Below, in pieces: positions 3,969 through 48,929 of a stretch of DNA of 48,929 nt (within the stretch, counting starts at the first letter, position 1; each line of letters starts with the position of its first letter). This stretch comes from Candidatus Berkelbacteria bacterium (GTDB taxonomy: Bacteria; Patescibacteriota; UBA1384; CAILIB01). The notes under the pieces were generated by a model. The model had not been told where the DNA came from. It searched no databases and saw nothing but the letters and a program-made list of their open reading frames with translations. The stretch lies in NCBI GenBank assembly GCA_043751595.1, contig JAYUZR010000030.1, positions 1-48,929 of the forward strand, given 5' to 3'. The translations under genes and the position numbers were made by a program.

Positions 3969-5243
3969 ATGCACCGTGGCCTAAGCGAGGTTATCAATGC
4001 TCGTGTGTTATACATCGATATGAACTCCTTCTTTGCCAGTGTAGAGCAAGAGTTTAATCCTGCTCTCCGCAGCAAACCAGTTGCCGTGTGCTCGCATACC
4101 ACCAATAAAGGCACCGTTTTAGCGGCTTCCTACGAGGCAAAGGCATTGGGGATAAAAACAGGCATGAAGGTCGGCGATGCTCGCGGAATCTTCCCTAAGC
4201 TGCACGTCTGCGAGCCAACCGCCAACCGGTATAAGCAGGTCCATATCCAAATCATGAATCTTCTCCGGCAGCACTGCGGGCCAGAGGTACAGGTGCGTAG
4301 TATCGATGAAGCCGCTGTCTTTCTCTCCAAGAACTGGCAAGATCCAGCATTTGCACACGCCATGGCGCTACGCCTTAAAGAAGCCATCGCGCGCGAGGTA
4401 GGCAGCTGCATCACCTGCTCCATCGGCATTGCCCCCAATAGCCTCCTCGCGAAGCTCGCCACTGATCTTAAAAAGCCCAACGGCCTGGTGACCATTACCA
4501 AAGAAAATCTGCGCGAAGTACTTGGTAGTATTCAGCTCACCGATCTCCCCGGCATTGCCGGCCGTAATGCTCTGCGATTGGCCGCTAAAAACATCTACAC
4601 CCCGCTCCAGCTGGCAGATACTCCTTTCGCCGAGCTAGTAGCCCTCTTTGGTATCTGGGGCGCTTCTTGGTGGTGGCGCCTGCATGGGTACGAGCCCGAT
4701 GCCTACTGGAATAGCAGCCCCATGAAAACAATGAGTCACGAGCACGTACTCGAAAAGTGGCTCCGTGGGCACGATGCCGTGGTACCAAGCGTGCGCACCA
4801 TGGCTGATCGCCTCGTACATCGGTTACGCAAAAACCAGTTTAACTGTACTGGCGTAGGTATTTCGTTGCGCCTGGTAGATCTCCCCGCCATTTGGCGGGA
4901 GCGCAAGTTTGATGCACCAGTAGCCGATTACCCAACCCTGGTTTCCACCCTCATTCAGCTCACTAATTCTATCCCTCTTCAGGATGATACCGTAGTGCGC
5001 AAAATAAGTGTGCATTGCTGGGGATTACATCAAGCAAGTAGCGGCGTGCAGCTCGATCTTTTTCAAACCGTGGCCCCCAAAGAACAGATTAGCGCCAGTG
5101 TTGAGAAAATTAGAAGTCGCTACGGCTTTGCCAGTATCCAGCCAGCAAGTAACTTGCTCCGAAAAAGAATTGGCGACGAGCAACTTGGCTTTGGCCGCAT
5201 TAAAGATAGGGCCGAAGCCTCGGCATTGTCGGCACGGGCGTAA
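3969..5243 (+). CDS. dinB: Y-family DNA polymerase IV
   Basis: YIDMNSFFASVE, AASYEAK, SIDEA and LAKLATDLKKPNG motifs. Start moved to ATG 3969, after the terminator. Confidence 0.92.
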   Translation: MHRGLSEVINARVLYIDMNSFFASVEQEFNPALRSKPVAVCSHTTNKGTVLAASYEAKALGIKTGMKVGDARGIFPKLHVCEPTANRYKQVHIQIMNLLRQHCGPEVQVRSIDEAAVFLSKNWQDPAFAHAMALRLKEAIAREVGSCITCSIGIAPNSLLAKLATDLKKPNGLVTITKENLREVLGSIQLTDLPGIAGRNALRLAAKNIYTPLQLADTPFAELVALFGIWGASWWWRLHGYEPDAYWNSSPMKTMSHEHVLEKWLRGHDAVVPSVRTMADRLVHRLRKNQFNCTGVGISLRLVDLPAIWRERKFDAPVADYPTLVSTLIQLTNSIPLQDDTVVRKISVHCWGLHQASSGVQLDLFQTVAPKEQISASVEKIRSRYGFASIQPASNLLRKRIGDEQLGFGRIKDRAEASALSARA

Positions 5244-5268
5244 CCTGGTACATTCGGGCACGTATGCG

Positions 5269-5487
5269 AATTCGGATGCGCCCGTTGCTTCGCAACGTGC
5301 TCGTCTCCTCGCTCGCAAGCGTTTCCTCGAGATATCCTGCCTTCGGCAGGATATAACTCTCCTCGCTCGCTCACAACAAAACAAGTAAACTTGTTTCTAC
5401 AATTCGGAGGCGCCCGTTGCTTCGCAACGTGCTCGTCTCCTCGCTCGCAAGTTAGTCATGCCTACGGCATACTAACGTTGCTCACTC
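5269..5487 (+). repeat. Array of three hairpin units upstream of tRNA-Ser, including a 51-bp direct repeat (5269-5319 / 5401-5451, 1 mismatch)
   Basis: Units start at 5274, 5329 and 5406; each ends in TCTCC-TCGCTCG. Confidence 0.85.
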
Positions 5488-5575
5488 GGAGAGATCGCAT
5501 AGTGGTCTAGTGCAGCATCTTGGAAAGGTGCCGTACCGAAAGGTACCGAGGGTCCGAATCCCTCTCTCTCCGCCA
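5488..5575 (+). tRNA. tRNA-Ser(GGA)
   Basis: GGAGAGA/TCTCTCC acceptor stem, GCATC-TTGGAAA-GGTGC anticodon arm, long variable arm GTACC-GAAA-GGTAC, discriminator G, encoded CCA. Confidence 0.95.
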
Positions 5576-11704: not shown

Positions 11705-12631
11705 ATGTCTACCTTTGTTTTTGGTCATATTAACCCCGATACCGATGCTACTTGCTCAGCTATTGCTGCAGCCTGGTATTTAAACGAGCTCGGCATTACC
11801 GATGCCATTCCTTTTTGCACCGGCAATCTTAATAAAGAAACTCAGTTTGTACTCGATCACTTCAAAGTAGAAACGCCAGAACTCATCACCGAGCTCTCAC
11901 CTGGCCAACCTTACTTTGTAGTTGATACCAATAACCCAGAAGAGCTTATTCCTAGCTTTGTCCAGGGAGAACTTACCGGTATTATCGATCACCACAAGTT
12001 TGCAGGTGGTCTTAGTACTCCTGGCCCTATTTCGGTAAGAATCGAGCCCCTTGCTTGCACTGCTACCGTTCTTACAGGCATGCTCCGCGCGGCCGAGCTC
12101 ACACCCCCACGCGAGATTACTGGCATTATGCTTGCCTGCATCATTTCCGATACGCTCAACTTTGTAAGCCCTACCAGCACCGAAATTGATAAGCGGGCCG
12201 CCCATTACCTTGCCGAGCTCACCGGCGAATCAATCGATGAACTGGCCGATGCCATGTTCAGCGCCAAGTCAGATCTCTCCGGTCTCACCCTTACCGATCT
12301 CCTCACACTAGATAGTAAGGTCTACAACCTAGGCAAGGCCAAGGTTCGCGTTTCTGTATTAGAAACAACCAAGCCCTCTAATGTTCTCGATCAAGTATCC
12401 GGCGTTATCGAGGCCATGCAAGCACTTTCACTCACCGATGGCACGGAAGGTTGCTTCTTCTTTGTGGTTGATATTCTCAAAGATTGCTCCACCCTCATTA
12501 CCTCCACCAGCTTCGAGCAAGAAGTAGCAGCAAAGGCTTTCTCAGTTGAGCCAACCCAGACCATCCTCCTACCTGGAGTTGTTTCTCGCAAAAAACAAAT
12601 GATTCCTAAGCTTGAGACTGCCCTCTCCTAA
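11705..12631 (+). CDS. ppaC: Manganese-dependent inorganic pyrophosphatase (family II)
   Basis: GHINPDTD, DHH, IISDT and PGVVSRKKQ motifs. Confidence 0.93.
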   Translation: MSTFVFGHINPDTDATCSAIAAAWYLNELGITDAIPFCTGNLNKETQFVLDHFKVETPELITELSPGQPYFVVDTNNPEELIPSFVQGELTGIIDHHKFAGGLSTPGPISVRIEPLACTATVLTGMLRAAELTPPREITGIMLACIISDTLNFVSPTSTEIDKRAAHYLAELTGESIDELADAMFSAKSDLSGLTLTDLLTLDSKVYNLGKAKVRVSVLETTKPSNVLDQVSGVIEAMQALSLTDGTEGCFFFVVDILKDCSTLITSTSFEQEVAAKAFSVEPTQTILLPGVVSRKKQMIPKLETALS

Positions 12632-23443: not shown

Positions 23444-23791
23444 ATGGCGAACACCCTTACTCCCCCCTATACCGTTGCCCAAGTTGTTGAAGAAAACATC
23501 TTCGACCTTCTTCAACTTACCGATCTCACCGAAGAAAGTCGCCAAGACTTTATGGATGAGCTTATGGAATCCGTTGATGGTGCCGTAATAGATGCCATCG
23601 CTGAGAAGCTAAGCGAAGAAGAACTTACAGTGTTTGAGGCCTTGCTGGATTCTGAGGAAGAAGCTGCCCTTGAGCCGTTTTTTACTGAAAAAAATATTAA
23701 CGTGGAAGAACTGTACGTAGCAAAAAGTATGGAGTACAAGATTGAGCTACTACAGCTCCGCTTTGGTGAAGACGCCGTTACCGAGAAATGA
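23444..23791 (+). CDS. Small acidic helical protein (resembles DUF5663-type CPR proteins)
   Basis: Very acidic 115-aa ORF; TACAAT upstream. Confidence 0.6.
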   Translation: MANTLTPPYTVAQVVEENIFDLLQLTDLTEESRQDFMDELMESVDGAVIDAIAEKLSEEELTVFEALLDSEEEAALEPFFTEKNINVEELYVAKSMEYKIELLQLRFGEDAVTEK

Positions 23792-26040
23792 ACGAAGGCG
23801 GACCGAGTCCTTTTGATATGACCACTCCAGAAAATAGAGGTGATGCCCTAGTACCACTTCAAGCAGAAGGTGAGGACATTTCTAGTGAAGAGCAGTCACC
23901 TCAATCAGATGGTGAGGGTCAGGCGAATCGCGTGGAGACTACGGCAATACCAGAAAGTAGGAAAGAGAAATTAAAAAGAATTTGGACAAAAGCACGAAAG
24001 GGCTTTAAAAAGCACTTTAATACAGATCCAACTAATCCTGAAGATTTAGCGCTTCTATTCAAGGATACGGAACTAGAGAAATTTCCAATTTTTAGAGATT
24101 TTACGCTTGAGCGATTATCTAAAATGGAAGTCATTCAAAAATACGCAAAATTTTACAGCCGTAAAAAAAACAGCCTCTACCGTCACAGCAGCAGGGTTAA
24201 GTTTGATGCAGATCTAGAGGGAATTGGAGTTGATCCAATAAGTGAGGGGGAAACAACTGCAAAGCCTACAAAAGGATACACGCCAGAGTTGCTAGGAAAA
24301 ATAAAGGGTAAGCACGTTTCTGTAAATGAAGATGCACTGAGCCTTATCCAAAAAATTACAAGGGATCGTTACCTAGGAAAACCTGGTCTCATCGAGAGTG
24401 CATACAGGAAAGTAACTAGTCCCTTGGGTCAGAGAGTTGCTGCAACGGCAGTATTTGGCGGGTTTTTAGGATACGAACACGCCGGTGCAGCACTGACACT
24501 GGTCCCCATTGGTGCCAATATCGCTATGGGTGGCTATGAACTACTGGCGGAAAAATTTGGCTGGATCAAAGAAACAGCAGCAGAGAAAAAAACCGGCGTC
24601 TTGGCACCTCCTGCCCATGAGGCCTTTAACGAAGATTTCCGCAGAGAACAATATCGCCTGATGCAGGATGACCTTGCGGAATGCAAGAAACTACTTGGCG
24701 ACGGTATTTTCACCCCATCCGAATATCAACTCCACGCAGCCAACGCAGCTAGGGCATATCAGAATATCCTCCATGAGACAGAAGGGTTAGCGAAAAAAGG
24801 CGGTAAGTCAAAACCACTACTGCGCCAATTTTACGACAAAGAAACTGGTGTACTTGCCACTACCCTGGTTGGCACCAGGATATTAGAAGGTCTCGTGGGA
24901 CAAGACCCTGCAACTATGGCCGCTCATACATCGGCCATGCTTTGGGGATTGGCCTTCTTGGCTGGAAAGCACTACGCTCCCCACCTTAAAGAAAAGTTCC
25001 TGGAGTGGTCTGAGGGGAAATCAACCGTTAAGGATAGTCTTATTTTTAGCGCTGGCACGGCAGCGGCAAGCCTACTTTACGGACTACATCACCAGCAGGC
25101 CCCGATGTCGGTAGAACTAGCACAACACGCCCTGGTGAGTGGAATATTTGCACTTGCTGCAGCAAGTCCTGCTGTATCAAAAACAGTAGAAGAGGCTCGC
25201 ACCCGTCTATCCAAGCTCCTTCCTGGGCTCAAGCCCGGTGGGGCCACACAGGTTCAAGATGCAACTCATAGAATTATTACTGAGACTGGCCTTCTCAAGA
25301 AAGAGGATGGCAATACTAGCGGAACAGCTCAGGGTAGGCTCTACGAAAATAAAGAAAGAAAGAAACCAGCTGAAAGAGCTATCACCGTAGACCTACCAGA
25401 TAGTCTCAATGGGCTTATTACCGAAATTGAAGCTAAGGTAACGACAGACTATCAAGTAGAAATTACAATAAACAGCATCGGAGAGGGTAAGTTGGTTATC
25501 GAGAATGAGGCATCTGGTAAGGTAGCCGCAAAGAAAGAAACGAGAAAGATTAAAAAAGAGGACATAACTAATCACACCTTCAAAAGTGATGCGAAAGCCA
25601 CTATAGAAATGGCTGGTAAAAATATTGTTTTTTACGTTAGACGATATGGTGAAGGGCTTACTTTTAATGAACCCCTTGCAGGTATCAATCCTTCCCATCA
25701 ACCTGCGCCACCCTCTATGGAAAGCAGTCCAGAAGTAGGTGGATCCGAAGAAGATTTTAGAATGTTACGCGAAGCGATTGAATCCGTACATATCGATCCA
25801 ACTCTCGAGGCGTATCTTCACCCGATTGATGTACGATCCCTTATTGTGGTTGAGCCGATTACCATTACATGGAAAGATAAGGATGGAAAAATGCATCGCT
25901 CAAAACTAGCAGCCGAAGAAGTTTTTCAGATAAAAGGCGGATCCTGTACATTTACTATATATGACGCAGGCTCAAATAATGTTGTAGGCATTGGTACATT
26001 CGAAGAAAACCCAGAAAAACTAACCATCCTACAGCCCTAG
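23788..26040 (+). CDS. Large hypothetical membrane-associated protein
   Basis: 750-aa ORF with ATGA overlap; several Gly/Ala-rich hydrophobic stretches. Confidence 0.7.
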   Translation: MNEGGPSPFDMTTPENRGDALVPLQAEGEDISSEEQSPQSDGEGQANRVETTAIPESRKEKLKRIWTKARKGFKKHFNTDPTNPEDLALLFKDTELEKFPIFRDFTLERLSKMEVIQKYAKFYSRKKNSLYRHSSRVKFDADLEGIGVDPISEGETTAKPTKGYTPELLGKIKGKHVSVNEDALSLIQKITRDRYLGKPGLIESAYRKVTSPLGQRVAATAVFGGFLGYEHAGAALTLVPIGANIAMGGYELLAEKFGWIKETAAEKKTGVLAPPAHEAFNEDFRREQYRLMQDDLAECKKLLGDGIFTPSEYQLHAANAARAYQNILHETEGLAKKGGKSKPLLRQFYDKETGVLATTLVGTRILEGLVGQDPATMAAHTSAMLWGLAFLAGKHYAPHLKEKFLEWSEGKSTVKDSLIFSAGTAAASLLYGLHHQQAPMSVELAQHALVSGIFALAAASPAVSKTVEEARTRLSKLLPGLKPGGATQVQDATHRIITETGLLKKEDGNTSGTAQGRLYENKERKKPAERAITVDLPDSLNGLITEIEAKVTTDYQVEITINSIGEGKLVIENEASGKVAAKKETRKIKKEDITNHTFKSDAKATIEMAGKNIVFYVRRYGEGLTFNEPLAGINPSHQPAPPSMESSPEVGGSEEDFRMLREAIESVHIDPTLEAYLHPIDVRSLIVVEPITITWKDKDGKMHRSKLAAEEVFQIKGGSCTFTIYDAGSNNVVGIGTFEENPEKLTILQP

Positions 26041-27124: not shown

Positions 27125-30100
27125 CTATTTATTCTTACTTGCTGCTGTTTCACCCATCCCCAAATCATCCCAAGGTGATTTATTTGCTTTGAACCAGGCA
27201 TTTCTGGCCTTTTGAGCATCGGTATTAGTTAAGGCTGCGCCCATTACGTCGAGCAGACTTGAAAGACGCCGCGCCGCTGCAGCGGCTTTAGGGTCAGAAA
27301 TACCTGCGGCGATTTCACGATCAACCATCGACTTTAATGAGCTCGCACTATCCCCATAGTATCCTGGATTTGGGCTCATTAGCTCCTTTTTTAGCAAGCT
27401 ACGCGCTGCATCTGCATCAGTCGAATTCGCAAACGATAGATCCCTCACTTTTCCACTAAGAATACTTTTAAAATGCTTGCCGAGCTCAGTGAAATGCGTA
27501 CCCTGCTCATCAATGTCCTTTGCCCTCTGTGCTACGCGAGCATCATACTCTTTAAGATCAGACTTGACTTTCTCTTTACCACTCTCAACATTAGGCATAT
27601 GCCCACCTGCGGTGTCTGCATACTTTTGAATGTCATCTACACTAGCGCCAGAATTGAGCTTAGACATCAGTCCTTGCAAGTAAGGGCGGTTAGCCGCAAG
27701 CTTACCACTATCCACGTCAGCTAGCGCCTTCCGAACATCTACAATAGCCGTAGACCTATTACCACCCTTTACATTACTAATTACGGATAAAGTTAAGGAG
27801 TGAGAATTAACTTGCTTAAAGTTATACTCTCCCAGTGCCTTATCTTTCATTTTCTCAGTAGCTTTAGAGATAGCTTGAGCAGCCCCGGCGTTTTGCAATA
27901 CTGAAGGATTATTTTGGGCGCGCGAATTCCAGTACCATCGGGTCTTATCTGCTTCAGCACTAGCAGCTGTTAACTGAGCACGCTGCTGGCTATCCATCGC
28001 CTTCTCATACAGGGTATGCATCTCCTGCACATTTGCCTGATTAGCCTTCAAGACATCCTTAAGTACTCCGGCCCATATACCTGCTCGCTCCTCTTCTGCT
28101 GCAACGAGTCCTTCCTTGGCTCGATATCCAAACGCAAGAGGACTAGTGGCCAAGAACTGATCAGCCATACCGGCACCCTCTTTTTCAAAACGATTAATGT
28201 GAGCAAGATTAGCCTTTTGATTCTTTTCCACTACTGAAAAGATTGCTTCCATGAGGGCTGGCTCGCGCGTGACAGCACTTTCAACCATATTGACTGTTTT
28301 CCCACCAAACTTCTTAGTGGCGATCCCCGCCCTTTGCAGTCCACTTTTTGGAAGTCTGTCTTGGTATTCTTTATATTTATCCTCATCAGCATAAGCATTC
28401 TTAAACCCCTGAGAATCGCCAACAAATTCCTTGTCTAGTCTCCCAGCAACAGCGTCGAGCCTGCTCTGCTCAGCAATCTTTAAGGCATCAAGTTCACCAG
28501 CCAGCCTTTTTGTTTCAGAATCAATAAAGGTGGCAGATGCGCCGGAACTGACTAAACCAGCAATATGTCCGTCATTAGCTACTACCTTCCTATCTATCCT
28601 TGCCTGAGAAGCTTGATCAAACGATTCCATAGTCTTCCTAATACCTTCCGTCTCTTTAAAGCGAGCAGTCTTTCTTTTCTTTTCAAGGTCCTCAGATTTC
28701 TTCTTACCCTTGGCGATAGTCCCCGCAGCCAAAGGAGCAAGCCACTGCGCACCAATATCCTGACGTACAGCACCATCGTGAAAATTCTTTTTGGCGTTTG
28801 TCCCGGCCGTGTCTGCCAACTTGCCCGCCTTTCTAACTGACCGGTATAGTCCACCAATTCCTACAGCATTTAACCCAGTCATTCCAATAGTGGATCCTAG
28901 TTGCCCCCACTTATCCATAACCCCCTTAAACTCACCCGCCATTTTAAACGGCTGAGTAAGAGCCATGTGCAGGAAGAAGATACCGATTGCAAAGTTAAAG
29001 AGCGTAGCAGCTCCACCCAACCCACCTGCCGCACCCCCGCTCGCCGTTTTTGTTACGTAATCTTGCGACGATCTAATAAAGATTACAGCGAAGGCAATAA
29101 GGGCAGAAGAGATAACTGGCATGAATAACCACCCCTGTGTCGTCTTCCACCAGCGCTTCCAGGCCACTGCCGCCAACGGAAAGTTCATACCCAAGAACGC
29201 AATTGGTGCGAAAGGAATAAGAACTAGGAAAACAATAAACCGAATTAAGAATAAGAACCCAACACAGATTAAGTATGTCGCCGAAACAAGTACAAGAATG
29301 GTAATGAAGAAGTCAAAAGATAACTTACTCCAGTCAAAAGTAAGGTTTGCACCAGGAACGGTATAAACATTGTCGGAAGCAGGAAGAAGCTTTTGAAAAG
29401 TCGTAACCAGGGTAGTAGTTGCGCTAGCAGTCGTCTTGGGATCAAGCGAAGCGATGATAGAGGTGGTTGCGATACGAGATATCTCGATCAGCGCCCGCAT
29501 AATAAAGTAGCTGAGATTTGCCAGAATAAAGCCAAGTACAAGGCCTGGAACAATCTTTTTTAATTGGTAGGTATTTACCTGAAGCTGCAGAATATTAGCA
29601 AGGGCAATCAGGATAAGAAAAATAACCAAAAAGATATTAATTAAATCGAGCATTCTCGAGTTAATCATTCTAATAGTGTCCGCAAAGGGAGTATCTCCGG
29701 TTAGTTGGTACTGTAGATCTCCCGAAGCAAACTTGGGCACAAGAGTCGCTAACTTAGATCCACTTGTAAGAGCAGAGGCATCAGCATCGGTCATGCCGGT
29801 AGCGGCCGCGAAAAAGCCGCCTGCCTCTTTTACAAAAGAATAGGTGACTTGAATTAAGGTAATTACTCCTCCACAAAGGCCGTTCCCGACAACATCAGAA
29901 ATCTTGGCCGGAATCCCTACGATATTTGATTTAACAATTCCACACTGACCACCTGCTGCGTTATCCAGTGCAACTGCGTTATCACTTGCAGGATCAGAAA
30001 AGTCATCTGTTTCTTTATAGGCTGCACCAAAAGAGTCTTTAGCTACTTGCTCGAGCGTAGAGGTTACCGTGCCAATTTTAATTGGAAGTTTCTTGATTTT

Positions 30101-30997
30101 TACAAACTGCGCTGCCCACCTACTTGCCATGCTATCTGTCGTTTCTCCGGAGGTAACATCTTGGGGAATGACAAAAGTATCAGCCCCTATCTGCGCAGTT
30201 ATTTGCCCTTGGGGTTTTTGAATGTCAGCTCCTACGTGAGCCCCAACATTGTTGTAAGCAACCTCTTCTCGCGTAGCGTATTCATACACAAAGGGGTACA
30301 AATAGCCCGTAACCTCAAGTCGCTTATAGCTATTACTCAATCCCCAAAGACTAGAAGCATCGTAAGTAATGGTGACATAGGCATTAGCACCAGCAACAGA
30401 CGCCTGACCAGGACGATACGTACTCGTACTTTTGACTGCAGTATGCAGTTGATCAAGAACAATTATAGAGGACTCAAATCCCCCTCTTGAGCTAGCAATA
30501 CTACTGACATCATCCTGCCACAGTGGCTTACCTGCCTCGGTAAAGACAATTTTCCCTGCATCTACCTTAAAGAATTGCTGTGCATCGGGCGCTTTAGCTA
30601 GGTCTGTATTAATTGCAGTAACCTTTCTACTAATCGCGCTCAAAAACCTCCCCATTCGAGTAAAGAGCTCGACAATGCCAATTTGATAACACTGCGCATC
30701 TCGGCGAGATCCAATATTTGGAGGAGTATCCTCATCGTCCGCAACTTCTCTAAATAGTTTTTTCGGCGGGAATCCCTGACCATTACAATCTAGATCGGTA
30801 AAGGCATTGTACTTTGGCTTTTGCTCTCCAGTTAGTAGCTGCATCGTTGTCCTGAAAGCCTTTTCTTCACTTGCAGGACGAGATGCAAGTCCGCCTAGCG
30901 CAAAAGCATTCCCTGCAGGAAGTAAGACAAAAAACAAAGACAGGGCAACAATAATACGTGCCCGAATCGTAATTACCAGCTGGTGCCTTGCCCTCAT
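27125..30997 (-). CDS. Large membrane protein with VirB6/TrbL-like architecture
   Basis: Signal peptide (AFA|), ~400-aa extracellular part, ~6-7 TM core (RFIVFLVLIPFAPIAFL..WKRWWK), long charged C-terminal tail. Confidence 0.65.
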   Translation of the reverse strand: MRARHQLVITIRARIIVALSLFFVLLPAGNAFALGGLASRPASEEKAFRTTMQLLTGEQKPKYNAFTDLDCNGQGFPPKKLFREVADDEDTPPNIGSRRDAQCYQIGIVELFTRMGRFLSAISRKVTAINTDLAKAPDAQQFFKVDAGKIVFTEAGKPLWQDDVSSIASSRGGFESSIIVLDQLHTAVKSTSTYRPGQASVAGANAYVTITYDASSLWGLSNSYKRLEVTGYLYPFVYEYATREEVAYNNVGAHVGADIQKPQGQITAQIGADTFVIPQDVTSGETTDSMASRWAAQFVKIKKLPIKIGTVTSTLEQVAKDSFGAAYKETDDFSDPASDNAVALDNAAGGQCGIVKSNIVGIPAKISDVVGNGLCGGVITLIQVTYSFVKEAGGFFAAATGMTDADASALTSGSKLATLVPKFASGDLQYQLTGDTPFADTIRMINSRMLDLINIFLVIFLILIALANILQLQVNTYQLKKIVPGLVLGFILANLSYFIMRALIEISRIATTSIIASLDPKTTASATTTLVTTFQKLLPASDNVYTVPGANLTFDWSKLSFDFFITILVLVSATYLICVGFLFLIRFIVFLVLIPFAPIAFLGMNFPLAAVAWKRWWKTTQGWLFMPVISSALIAFAVIFIRSSQDYVTKTASGGAAGGLGGAATLFNFAIGIFFLHMALTQPFKMAGEFKGVMDKWGQLGSTIGMTGLNAVGIGGLYRSVRKAGKLADTAGTNAKKNFHDGAVRQDIGAQWLAPLAAGTIAKGKKKSEDLEKKRKTARFKETEGIRKTMESFDQASQARIDRKVVANDGHIAGLVSSGASATFIDSETKRLAGELDALKIAEQSRLDAVAGRLDKEFVGDSQGFKNAYADEDKYKEYQDRLPKSGLQRAGIATKKFGGKTVNMVESAVTREPALMEAIFSVVEKNQKANLAHINRFEKEGAGMADQFLATSPLAFGYRAKEGLVAAEEERAGIWAGVLKDVLKANQANVQEMHTLYEKAMDSQQRAQLTAASAEADKTRWYWNSRAQNNPSVLQNAGAAQAISKATEKMKDKALGEYNFKQVNSHSLTLSVISNVKGGNRSTAIVDVRKALADVDSGKLAANRPYLQGLMSKLNSGASVDDIQKYADTAGGHMPNVESGKEKVKSDLKEYDARVAQRAKDIDEQGTHFTELGKHFKSILSGKVRDLSFANSTDADAARSLLKKELMSPNPGYYGDSASSLKSMVDREIAAGISDPKAAAAARRLSSLLDVMGAALTNTDAQKARNAWFKANKSPWDDLGMGETAASKNK

Positions 30998-48306: not shown

Positions 48307-48344
48307 CCAACATAAAAGAGCCTTGAAAGGCTCTTTTATGTTGG
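48307..48344 (-). terminator. Perfect 17-bp inverted repeat overlapping the tRNA-Glu CCA
   Basis: CCAACATAAAAGAGCCT-TGAA-AGGCTCTTTTATGTTGG. Confidence 0.7.
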
Positions 48345-48418
48345 TAGCACCAGCGGGATTTGAACCCGCGATCTCTTGGATGAGAACCAAGTGTCCTAGA
48401 CCACTAGACGATGGCGCC
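48342..48418 (-). tRNA. tRNA-Glu(CTC)
   Basis: GGCGCCA/TGGTGCT acceptor stem, CTTGG-TTCTCAT-CCAAG anticodon arm, GCGGG-TTCAAAT-CCCGC T-arm, CCA. Confidence 0.95.
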
Positions 48419-48823
48419 GAAGTGAGGGAGCGGAAAAGTAAGTTAACTTACTTTTCGCGAACGAACGAGGCGTTATGTCGCAAAGCGACATGGCCGAACA
48501 TTAAGCGAACGAGGTGCCGATACCGCGAAGCGGTAGGGCGCCTATTACCGAGCGAGGCGCTGTATATCGCGTACCGATATGGCGCTTTACTCAAGAAGAA
48601 AATAAGTCTTCTCAGTCACGAATGACGTTTTGGAAACTACCAGACAATCCTCCTTCTGTCCAGACATAGCACCGCATTAACTTCCTATGCGATAATAACT
48701 ACATGTATAAGTGGCTCGCCCACTCCCTTAATCGATGGCGCCGAGTGAGAGAGCAGAGAAGTAAGTTTACTTACTTCTCTGCGAACGATCGAAGCGCCTC
48801 TCTCGCGGCAGCGAGATGGCGCC
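48419..48823 (-). repeat. Array of four hairpin units and a duplicated tRNA 5' end upstream of tRNA-Glu
   Basis: Units at about 48462-48495, 48506-48542, 48549-48585 and 48786-48823; 48409-48472 is repeated imperfectly at 48733-48797. Confidence 0.8.
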
Positions 48824-48846
48824 CTCGGGTAGCTCGTGCTGTAGTA

Positions 48847-48927
48847 CTATGCCTTGTCGTTGCAGGGTTCAGTCTTGGTGCACAAAACTTCGCCAAGGCC
48901 TTCACCATTCCAGATCAAGTCGTCATC
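48847..48927 (-). CDS. C-terminal end of a CDS running off the window
   Basis: Open frame ...DDDLIWNGEGLGEVLCTKTEPCNDKA* ending at TAG 48847. Confidence 0.35.
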   Translation of the reverse strand, partial: DDDLIWNGEGLGEVLCTKTEPCNDKA

Positions 48928-48929
48928 GA

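Follow-up and report, generated by a model that had tools for sequence, protein, structure and literature searches.

We describe a conserved leader design that occurs across many CPR bacteria and matches no Rfam family; in the Candidatus Berkelbacteria DNA analysed here it fills the 167 nt directly upstream of a tRNA-Glu gene. Its anatomy, the covariation of both of its hairpins, its specificity for the cognate tRNA, the presence of orthologous arrays in five genera and, in this genome, its restriction to tRNA leaders are established. The reading that we favour, with a probability of about 0.4, is that the design is a cis-acting leader cassette of pseudo-5′-ends that RNase P would handle and that would grow by tandem duplication. 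We found no description of cassette-type leaders in Rfam or in the literature searched.

The stretch analysed, hereafter the window, is the whole of contig C30 (48,929 nt) of a 976-kb assembly of 62 contigs with 50% G+C. ARAGORN and Rfam both place two tRNAs in it, Ser(GGA) on the plus strand and Glu(CUC) on the minus strand. Read on the tRNA strand from 48585 to 48419, the Glu leader consists of three hairpin units, each followed directly on its 3′ side by a heptamer with the consensus TCGYTCG (box A), then a linker hairpin (the clamp) and a second box, box B, that touches +1 of the tRNA (Table 1). A sequence-only reading had proposed each of these pieces, and all of them were verified on the minus strand. 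The same reading had the outer ends of the units echo the 5′ strand of the tRNA. That echo is real, but the outer stems are weaker than was implied (4 bp, 5 bp with a mismatch, and 3 bp) and reproduce only 4 to 6 nt, where mimic arms elsewhere are typically 9 nt long. A −10-like motif upstream of the array is the putative promoter of the leader; a generic sigma-70 promoter scan and a terminator scan detected nothing.

Table 1. Positions of the leader arrays, their tRNAs and neighbouring elements in the window. R1 is the covariance model of the unit, and R2 the model of box A, clamp and box B.
Feature	Position	Strand	Basis and remarks
Ser array before tRNA-Ser(GGA)	5274..5487	+	Same grammar; R1 matches; R2 match 5439-5487
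Ser units	5274-5315, 5329-5369, 5406-5447	+	
Ser internal clamp; terminal clamp; box B	5379-5396; 5448-5480; 5481-5487	+	
tRNA-Ser(GGA)	5488..5575	+	ARAGORN, Rfam
13-bp hairpin straight after CCA, terminator-like by eye	48310..48341	-	Sequence; terminator scan negative
tRNA-Glu(CUC), encoded CCA	48342..48418	-	ARAGORN; Rfam RF00005, 64.7 bits; two G.U pairs in acceptor stem
Box B, CTCACTTC, pyrimidine-rich single strand touching +1	48419..48426	-	Sequence and fold; part of R2 match 48420-48470
Clamp (linker) hairpin, 10 bp, 4-nt loop	48433..48456	-	Fold
Unit 3: outer stem 3 bp, inner hairpin 7 bp, then box A TCGTTCG	48462..48495	-	R1 match 48462-48496, E 3.3e-5
Unit 2: 5′ arm = tRNA nt 1-6; outer stem 5 bp including a C.A mismatch; inner hairpin 6 bp; box A TCGTTCG	48506..48542	-	R1, E 2.1e-5
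Unit 1: outer stem 4 bp, inner hairpin 6 bp, then box A TCGCTCG	48549..48585	-	R1, E 2.7e-4
-10-like motif TG[GC]TANNNT, 215 nt before +1 (putative promoter)	48634..48642	-	Motif scan
10-nt copy of the tRNA-Glu 5′ end, straight after upstream box B	48733..48742	-	Read in sequence
Second module: unit, box A-like stretch, clamp hairpin, CTCACTC	48743..48824	-	R2 match 48743-48794, E 5.5e-4

The minimum-energy fold of the 167-nt leader contains exactly the three unit hairpins and the clamp hairpin, at −55.8 kcal/mol against a mean of −42.9 for shuffled sequences (z = −3.63; 1 of 200 shuffles equally stable). That the inner hairpins differ in sequence and yet stay paired, as had been claimed, is borne out by counts across 22 units: 88.3% of the cells of the 7-bp inner helix are paired, compared with 64.4% in shuffles, and 45 cells have changed on both sides when 13.0 were expected, values that none of 500 shuffles reached. 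Sliding the partner by 1 to 3 columns lowers pairing to 24–42%. The clamp behaves similarly over 44 modules from across the phylum (75.6% paired versus 53.4% in shuffles; 137 cells changed on both sides versus 57.3 expected; 0 of 500 shuffles), for which the structure was set by hand and the pairs were counted; RNAalifold returned no structure for the A3 alignment, in which the stems apparently lie out of register. Among 154 stem cells, 135 are Watson–Crick, 1 is G·U and 2 are A·C. With stems almost purely Watson–Crick and the antisense strand of the leaders folding equally well, the acting strand, and whether it acts as RNA or DNA, are not readable from the sequence.

Further upstream in the window lies a second module, at the end of which box B and 10 nt of tRNA-Glu are repeated (48749..48733); ARAGORN calls no tRNA after this 10-nt copy. 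About 150 nt of unrelated sequence, containing the −10-like motif, separates the extra module from the main array. The module (48733–48824) looks like a frozen duplication junction, and since the contig ends at 48929, more modules may exist upstream. A minor form at 48518–48604, in which units 1 and 2 are replaced by 16–40 other letters that would form a different unit-like hairpin, appears weakly (depth of about 3, 30-nt side) in contigs of three of the four runs of one study (X1, X2 and X4), and may be an array polymorphism in the population. Elsewhere in the window, two large open reading frames, at 23788–26040 (plus strand, 750 amino acids) and 27125–30997 (minus strand, 1,290 amino acids), have no Pfam match at E ≤ 0.001.

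The array before tRNA-Ser(GGA) had been said to follow the same grammar, and the unit model agrees: R1, a covariance model built from 22 aligned units (18 from this genome and 4 from a relative, G003), recognises all three Glu units (E values of 2e-5 to 3e-4) and all three Ser units (2e-4 to 2e-3). Across the genome, R1 gives 17 matches at E < 0.06, all 17 in sense orientation and all in the leaders of 10 tRNAs; 1 of the 17 was outside the training set, and two weaker matches (E of 0.2 and 0.6) lie elsewhere. When the 240 nt upstream of the 44 CCA-ending tRNAs were judged by eye, 12 leaders showed the grammar (Tyr, Pro-GGG, Pro-UGG, Ala-UGC, Glu-UUC, Glu-CUC, Arg-UCG, Arg-UCU, Asn, Ile-UAU, Ser-CGA and Ser-GGA), that of Arg-UCU having clamp and boxes only, and Ala-GGC formed a weak thirteenth case. 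The core of box B, CTCACT, has 526 copies in the genome on both strands, of which 9 fall in the 15 nt that precede any of the 63 tRNAs; by our own arithmetic about 0.25 would be expected by chance. The −10-like motif is found upstream of 19 of the 44 CCA-tRNAs (0.17 expected per 300 nt). It lies 145–233 nt away in the five array-bearing tRNAs that have one and 8–36 nt away in most array-less tRNAs, and the arrays sit between motif and tRNA.

Two other features of the genome deserve mention. Beside the 3′ end of the tmRNA on contig C11 (about 11800–12030; L011 150–380, plus strand), a small promoter-to-hairpin interval holds box-A-like and box-B-like motifs; it contains no tRNA and has no Rfam match, and may be an unannotated small RNA. 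At least five different 16S genes or fragments, whose Ile/Ala spacers vary, lie on short contigs of the bin, which also has a contig of 11 tRNAs without encoded CCA (C10, C17, C29, C50, C52, C54, C59 and C18 are concerned). The multiple-16S and CCA-less tRNA contigs are taken to be strays from other organisms, despite a contamination estimate of 1.5%.

The relatives of this organism have genomes of 0.6–1.3 Mb. Of the 10 other genomes in this family, 7 carry R1 matches; neither of two sister-family genomes does. Outside the family, 2 of 138 other genomes of the class gave a match, both marginal and without a downstream tRNA, a sign that the unit model does not reach across the phylum. Of 18 family matches examined, 15 have a called tRNA 11–102 nt downstream, and a sixteenth runs into a tRNA start that is cut by the contig end. 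Two matches in one genome (G004; L047 and L069) show unit, clamp and a doubled box B before the same paralogous non-tRNA sequence; there the cassette would serve another paralogous RNA or gene start. The set of tRNAs that carry arrays varies among genera. The Pro(UGG) leader, however, is shared by five genera, with units, boxes and clamp kept through compensatory changes, and is absent from a sixth. PolA proteins of the Pro(UGG)-array genera are 55–58% identical, and an architecture kept across five genera so divergent is hard to reconcile with neutral DNA. A search for related loci with PolA found no relative.

To survey public genomes we used an exact pattern (box A, 20–45 nt, box B, 7–16 nt, D-arm heptamer) and kept one genome per species. 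It matched 94 stretches, of which 80 loci are listed; among these 80, a tRNA starts 0–8 nt after box B in 51. Patescibacteria-type names account for 42 of the 51 tRNA-abutting loci listed, the names among the matches listed including Saccharibacteria, Berkelbacteria, Magasanikbacteria, Paceibacterota, Parcubacteria, Peribacteria, Gracilibacteria and ‘Patescibacteria group’. Again among the matches listed, the 51 comprise at least 10 isoacceptor types, and 32 have an encoded CCA. The model R2, composed of box A, clamp and box B, has matches in 8 of 150 other sampled genomes of the phylum, from 6 families, indicating a spread that is wide but patchy at this sensitivity. The sequence-only reading had argued for a general mechanism. 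The generality of the grammar holds, in 12 of 44 CCA-tRNAs by the survey by eye, in 7 of 10 family genomes and in many Patescibacteria lineages, but that reading named no mechanism and our analysis establishes none.

Some searches returned elements of other kinds. A first collection pattern was rejected, as it retrieved mostly an unrelated Acidobacteriota repeat and only 1 of its 91 matches adjoins a tRNA. That repeat (L076–L154; Acidobacteriota/Vicinamibacterales) is a high-copy element of about 75 nt that combines a G+C-rich hairpin with three or four CTCGCTCG-like boxes. It is sometimes tandem, with periods of 107–213 nt, does not lie beside tRNAs and resembles the cassette only superficially in its grammar; the two loci scanned (L095 and L153) have no Rfam match. 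Four Prevotella/Prevotellaceae genomes (L219, L220, L242 and L248) share a conserved non-tRNA element made of box A, a hairpin and box B.

The variable part of the cassette corresponds to the gene that follows it. The 5′ arm of a unit repeats the bases with which the downstream tRNA begins, and its 3′ arm is Watson–Crick complementary to the 5′ arm. In a family set of 33 automatically chosen leaders, some false calls included, the prefix match averages 4.3 nt to the cognate tRNA and 2.1 nt to non-cognate tRNAs, and reaches at least 7 nt in 7 of 33 leaders as opposed to 4 of 4,032 non-cognate comparisons. In the phylum set, the tRNA start is copied over at least 7 nt in 30 of the 51 loci among the matches listed, versus 9 of 2,496 mismatched controls. 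The earlier suggestion that the outer arms are specific to the following tRNA is thus supported in both sets. A copy of exactly 9 nt is seen in 21 of the 51 loci among the matches listed, and a complement of tRNA nucleotides 1–9 lies within 22 nt before box A in 21 of 51 (matches listed) versus 193 of 2,496 controls. The start copy begins exactly at +1 in single-module leaders; in arrays, the previous box B precedes it. A box-B-like stretch stands before 10 of the 51 start copies among the matches listed, and 9 of these 10 are copies of at least 7 nt.

The cassette also occurs before protein genes. Of 30 R2 matches read in three cassette-rich genomes (G220, G289 and G279), 3 abut a tRNA, all of them in G289; the G289 matches lie in tRNA leaders, whereas those of G220 and G279 do not. 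G220 has 31 R2 matches at E ≤ 0.05, near-identical in sequence, and at 13 of 18 loci an open reading frame of at least 100 amino acids starts exactly 3 or 9 nt after box B. The upstream unit there repeats the neighbourhood of the start codon, and no ribosome-binding site is visible before these cassette-linked frames. The genes concerned (L318–L345) are diverse, with N termini suggesting likely Der, GluRS, TrmD, MreB, Tmk and secreted proteins. An account based on tRNAs alone is therefore incomplete. The cassette would appear to be a general ‘gene-start’ leader element, one that is apparently confined to tRNAs only in the family of the window, the two G004 matches before a non-tRNA sequence apart. 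Two points go beyond what had been noticed before: the echo is a copy that starts exactly at +1, and the cassette elsewhere precedes protein genes.

In the reading that we favour, the 167 nt would be the transcribed 5′ leader of a tRNA-Glu precursor, and its cassette would comprise, as RNA, a start-mimic hairpin, box A (UCGYUCG), a clamp hairpin of free sequence and box B (CUCACU(U)C) abutting +1. Each mimic hairpin would serve as a pseudo-5′-end, offering RNase P the same arrangement as the tRNA itself does: a pyrimidine box and, after it, a helix opening with the +1 sequence of the tRNA. On this view the enzyme would cleave not only at +1 but also at the foot of the mimics, taking the long leader apart. 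Additional units would come from tandem duplication of the junction between box B and nucleotides +1 to +9. Selection would keep the complementary arm because it locks the spare 5′ strand away from the 3′ acceptor strand of the tRNA, and because it locks the anti-start away from the real 5′ end. Predicted folds of leaders that lack the decoy arm, given below, speak for such locking, though not in the window. As in RNase P hairpin substrates, a single-stranded leader stands before a unit helix of 10–13 bp, bulges included. Against this reading, the units have neither the discriminator and CCA 3′ tail of such substrates nor any CCA-like tail, the tail being box A. The RNase P RNA of this genome is of the ordinary type A (177 bits), and none of the five 6–7-mers complementary to the boxes is present in it.

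More speculatively, Patescibacteria might carry programmable ‘start-addressed’ leaders, in which the anti-start arm would guide RNase P or a box-reading nuclease to the first base, new addresses being acquired by duplication of the first 9 nt of the target; we regard this as improbable. Were such a system real, tRNAs of some lineages would owe it their mature 5′ ends, and in others, G220 for one, it would yield near-leaderless mRNAs.

Of its variable features, the cassette keeps complementarity to the downstream start best, and this would also suit a factor-controlled switch of three RNA strands, which we consider possible but doubtful. The 3′ arm would pair either with the decoy, leaving the start free, or with the real start, thereby preventing a tRNA from maturing or an mRNA from being translated. 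With the start so paired, boxes A and B would lie opposite one another beneath the clamp and form a conserved internal loop, the site at which a protein or ligand would set the balance. The same logic applies in G220, where the start is the AUG region, and the boxes are kept letter for letter across many Patescibacteria groups around a clamp of free sequence, although the search pattern required those letters. With the decoy arm removed, the anti-start is predicted to capture tRNA nucleotides 1–9 in 4 of 11 leaders tested, and it does so in 1 of 11 full-length leaders; the no-decoy fold of that leader keeps its acceptor stem. The unit hairpin, however, is the earlier to form, and its predicted stability is the greater in 8 of 11 full-length folds; in the window, where the arms are short, folding predicts no competition between mimic arm and tRNA. 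Both boxes are moreover pyrimidine-rich, making canonical pairing with each other impossible. A decoy or recruiting site for a protein that reads the acceptor stem, such as the cognate aminoacyl-tRNA synthetase, or an RNase Z processing signal, would account for the resemblance of the outer stem to the top of the cognate acceptor stem, and is scarcely credible: the 3′ arm complements the 5′ arm rather than copying the 3′ strand of the tRNA, and the Ala units read have G3–C where the tRNA has G3·U70, both of which speak against a synthetase as the target of the mimicry. Nor do the units imitate the discriminator or CCA, and the cassette also precedes open reading frames. RNase Z punctuation was rejected because no RNase Z gene was found in the genome; the best match, a ComEC-type metallo-beta-lactamase domain, reaches 31.6 bits where the cut-off is 293.

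Other properties would suit DNA that spreads or persists on its own account, a MITE- or REP-like repeat or a product of slippage and tandem duplication that is tolerated at gene starts, with hairpins that matter, if at all, as DNA. Tandem neighbours can be near-identical (Ser units 1 and 3; Ala in G289), as are the 31 matches of G220; the distribution is patchy (8 of 150 genomes, 6 families); the stems are Watson–Crick only; the start copy resembles a 9-bp target duplication; and variant contigs from the source samples, weak at a depth of about 3, replace units. We nevertheless think this explanation rather unlikely. Cassettes are always in the sense orientation and tightly constrained in position, box B lying 0–8 nt from +1 or 3 or 9 nt from ATG, and orthologous arrays with compensatory changes persist across genera. 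Neither terminal inverted repeats nor a transposase was seen, and we know of no transposon mechanism that makes an inverted target copy next to a direct one. The 17 of 17 sense matches in tRNA leaders and the 13 of 18 phased reading frames in G220 speak against a MITE or REP element proper, which occurs in both orientations and independently of gene starts. With a box next to a hairpin whose sequence is free, and a place close behind a putative promoter in untranslated leaders, the cassette recalls a nut-like site for processive antitermination or for protection of untranslated transcripts from Rho. The boxes are absent, however, from seven Patescibacteria 16S leaders (G024, G028, G011, G015, G220, G289 and G279) and from that of contig C54. 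Elements of the nut type classically occur in rRNA leaders; rRNA leaders without boxes, including those of three cassette-rich genomes, argue against a general antitermination signal, and start mimicry would be left unexplained, making such a role very unlikely. A box-B-like pentamer before the 16S gene of C54 is absent from the seven other 16S leaders and is treated as chance.

Among known systems, T-box leaders combine a specifier codon, a bulge that binds the 3′ end of a tRNA and a terminator or sequestrator, and lie upstream of aminoacyl-tRNA synthetase or amino-acid genes. Like these and other attenuator-type switches (terminator, antiterminator and anti-antiterminator), the cassette has decoy, complementary and real target strands that allow two exclusive folds, but what it targets is an AUG region or the 5′ terminus of a tRNA, not a terminator, and it has no visible specifier, element for binding a tRNA 3′ end, terminator or link to a synthetase gene. 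A T-box leader was rejected, as no Rfam T-box match appears at the gathering score or at E ≤ 1 and the element lies upstream of tRNAs. Plant mitochondrial t-elements and mascRNA use acceptor-like helices as punctuation in precursors and are recognised by tRNA models. The cassette shares acceptor-like helices within a putative precursor; its units have no D, anticodon or T arms, unlike those RNAs, and no tRNA or mascRNA match at E ≤ 1. A tRNA or tRNA-like RNA (RF00005; clan CL00001) was likewise rejected, ARAGORN giving only the two real tRNAs and leaving the leaders unmatched. Rfam at E ≤ 1 reports nothing within 48419–48929 or 5150–5487, nor does it at gathering scores. REP/BIME, BOX, Correia and ERIC elements are dispersed in both orientations and carry no copy of a neighbour’s start. 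The cassette resembles them in its modular hairpin-plus-box make-up, many copies, fast turnover and presumed co-transcription with neighbours; unlike REP-type repeats, cassettes are strictly sense and phased to +1 or ATG.

Further parallels concern RNase P itself, its leaders, hairpin substrates and guides, a literature that includes PMC9433436, PMC7897497 and PMC12439589. With pre-tRNA leaders and hairpin substrates the cassette shares an unpaired leader that runs straight into a helix starting at the putative cleavage site, and with external guide sequences the logic of an RNase P guide, a strand complementary to the first bases of the target RNA. It differs from RNase P guides in holding both guide and target copy inside the leader, in tandem, with a conserved box in place of the CCA tail. 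TIGR arrays (TIGR-Tas), as described in PMC12045711, are known from parasitic bacteria and from phages; a Tas (Nop-domain) gene lies next to them, and they have paired 9-nt variable segments and stem-loop variants. Their spacers A and B show no mutual covariation, have box C/D-like flanks and address adjoining sites on opposite DNA strands (PMC12045711). The two 9-nt segments of the cassette are, in contrast, complements of each other and match the gene directly downstream. We rejected a TIGR array, as the arms are complementary, no box C/D-like flanks were seen and every defining feature tested differs.

If the cassette is a functional RNA, it would be a widespread cis element of CPR bacteria, a leader in which the opening bases of its gene are present both as a copy and as an anti-copy. 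It would then bear on tRNA maturation in reduced bacteria and on translation starts without obvious ribosome-binding sites, and would offer a natural case of guide-like addressing of an RNA 5′ end and a defined substrate for RNase P biochemistry. For annotation, the cassette accounts for long ‘empty’ stretches before tRNA genes and for assembly breaks in CPR genomes.
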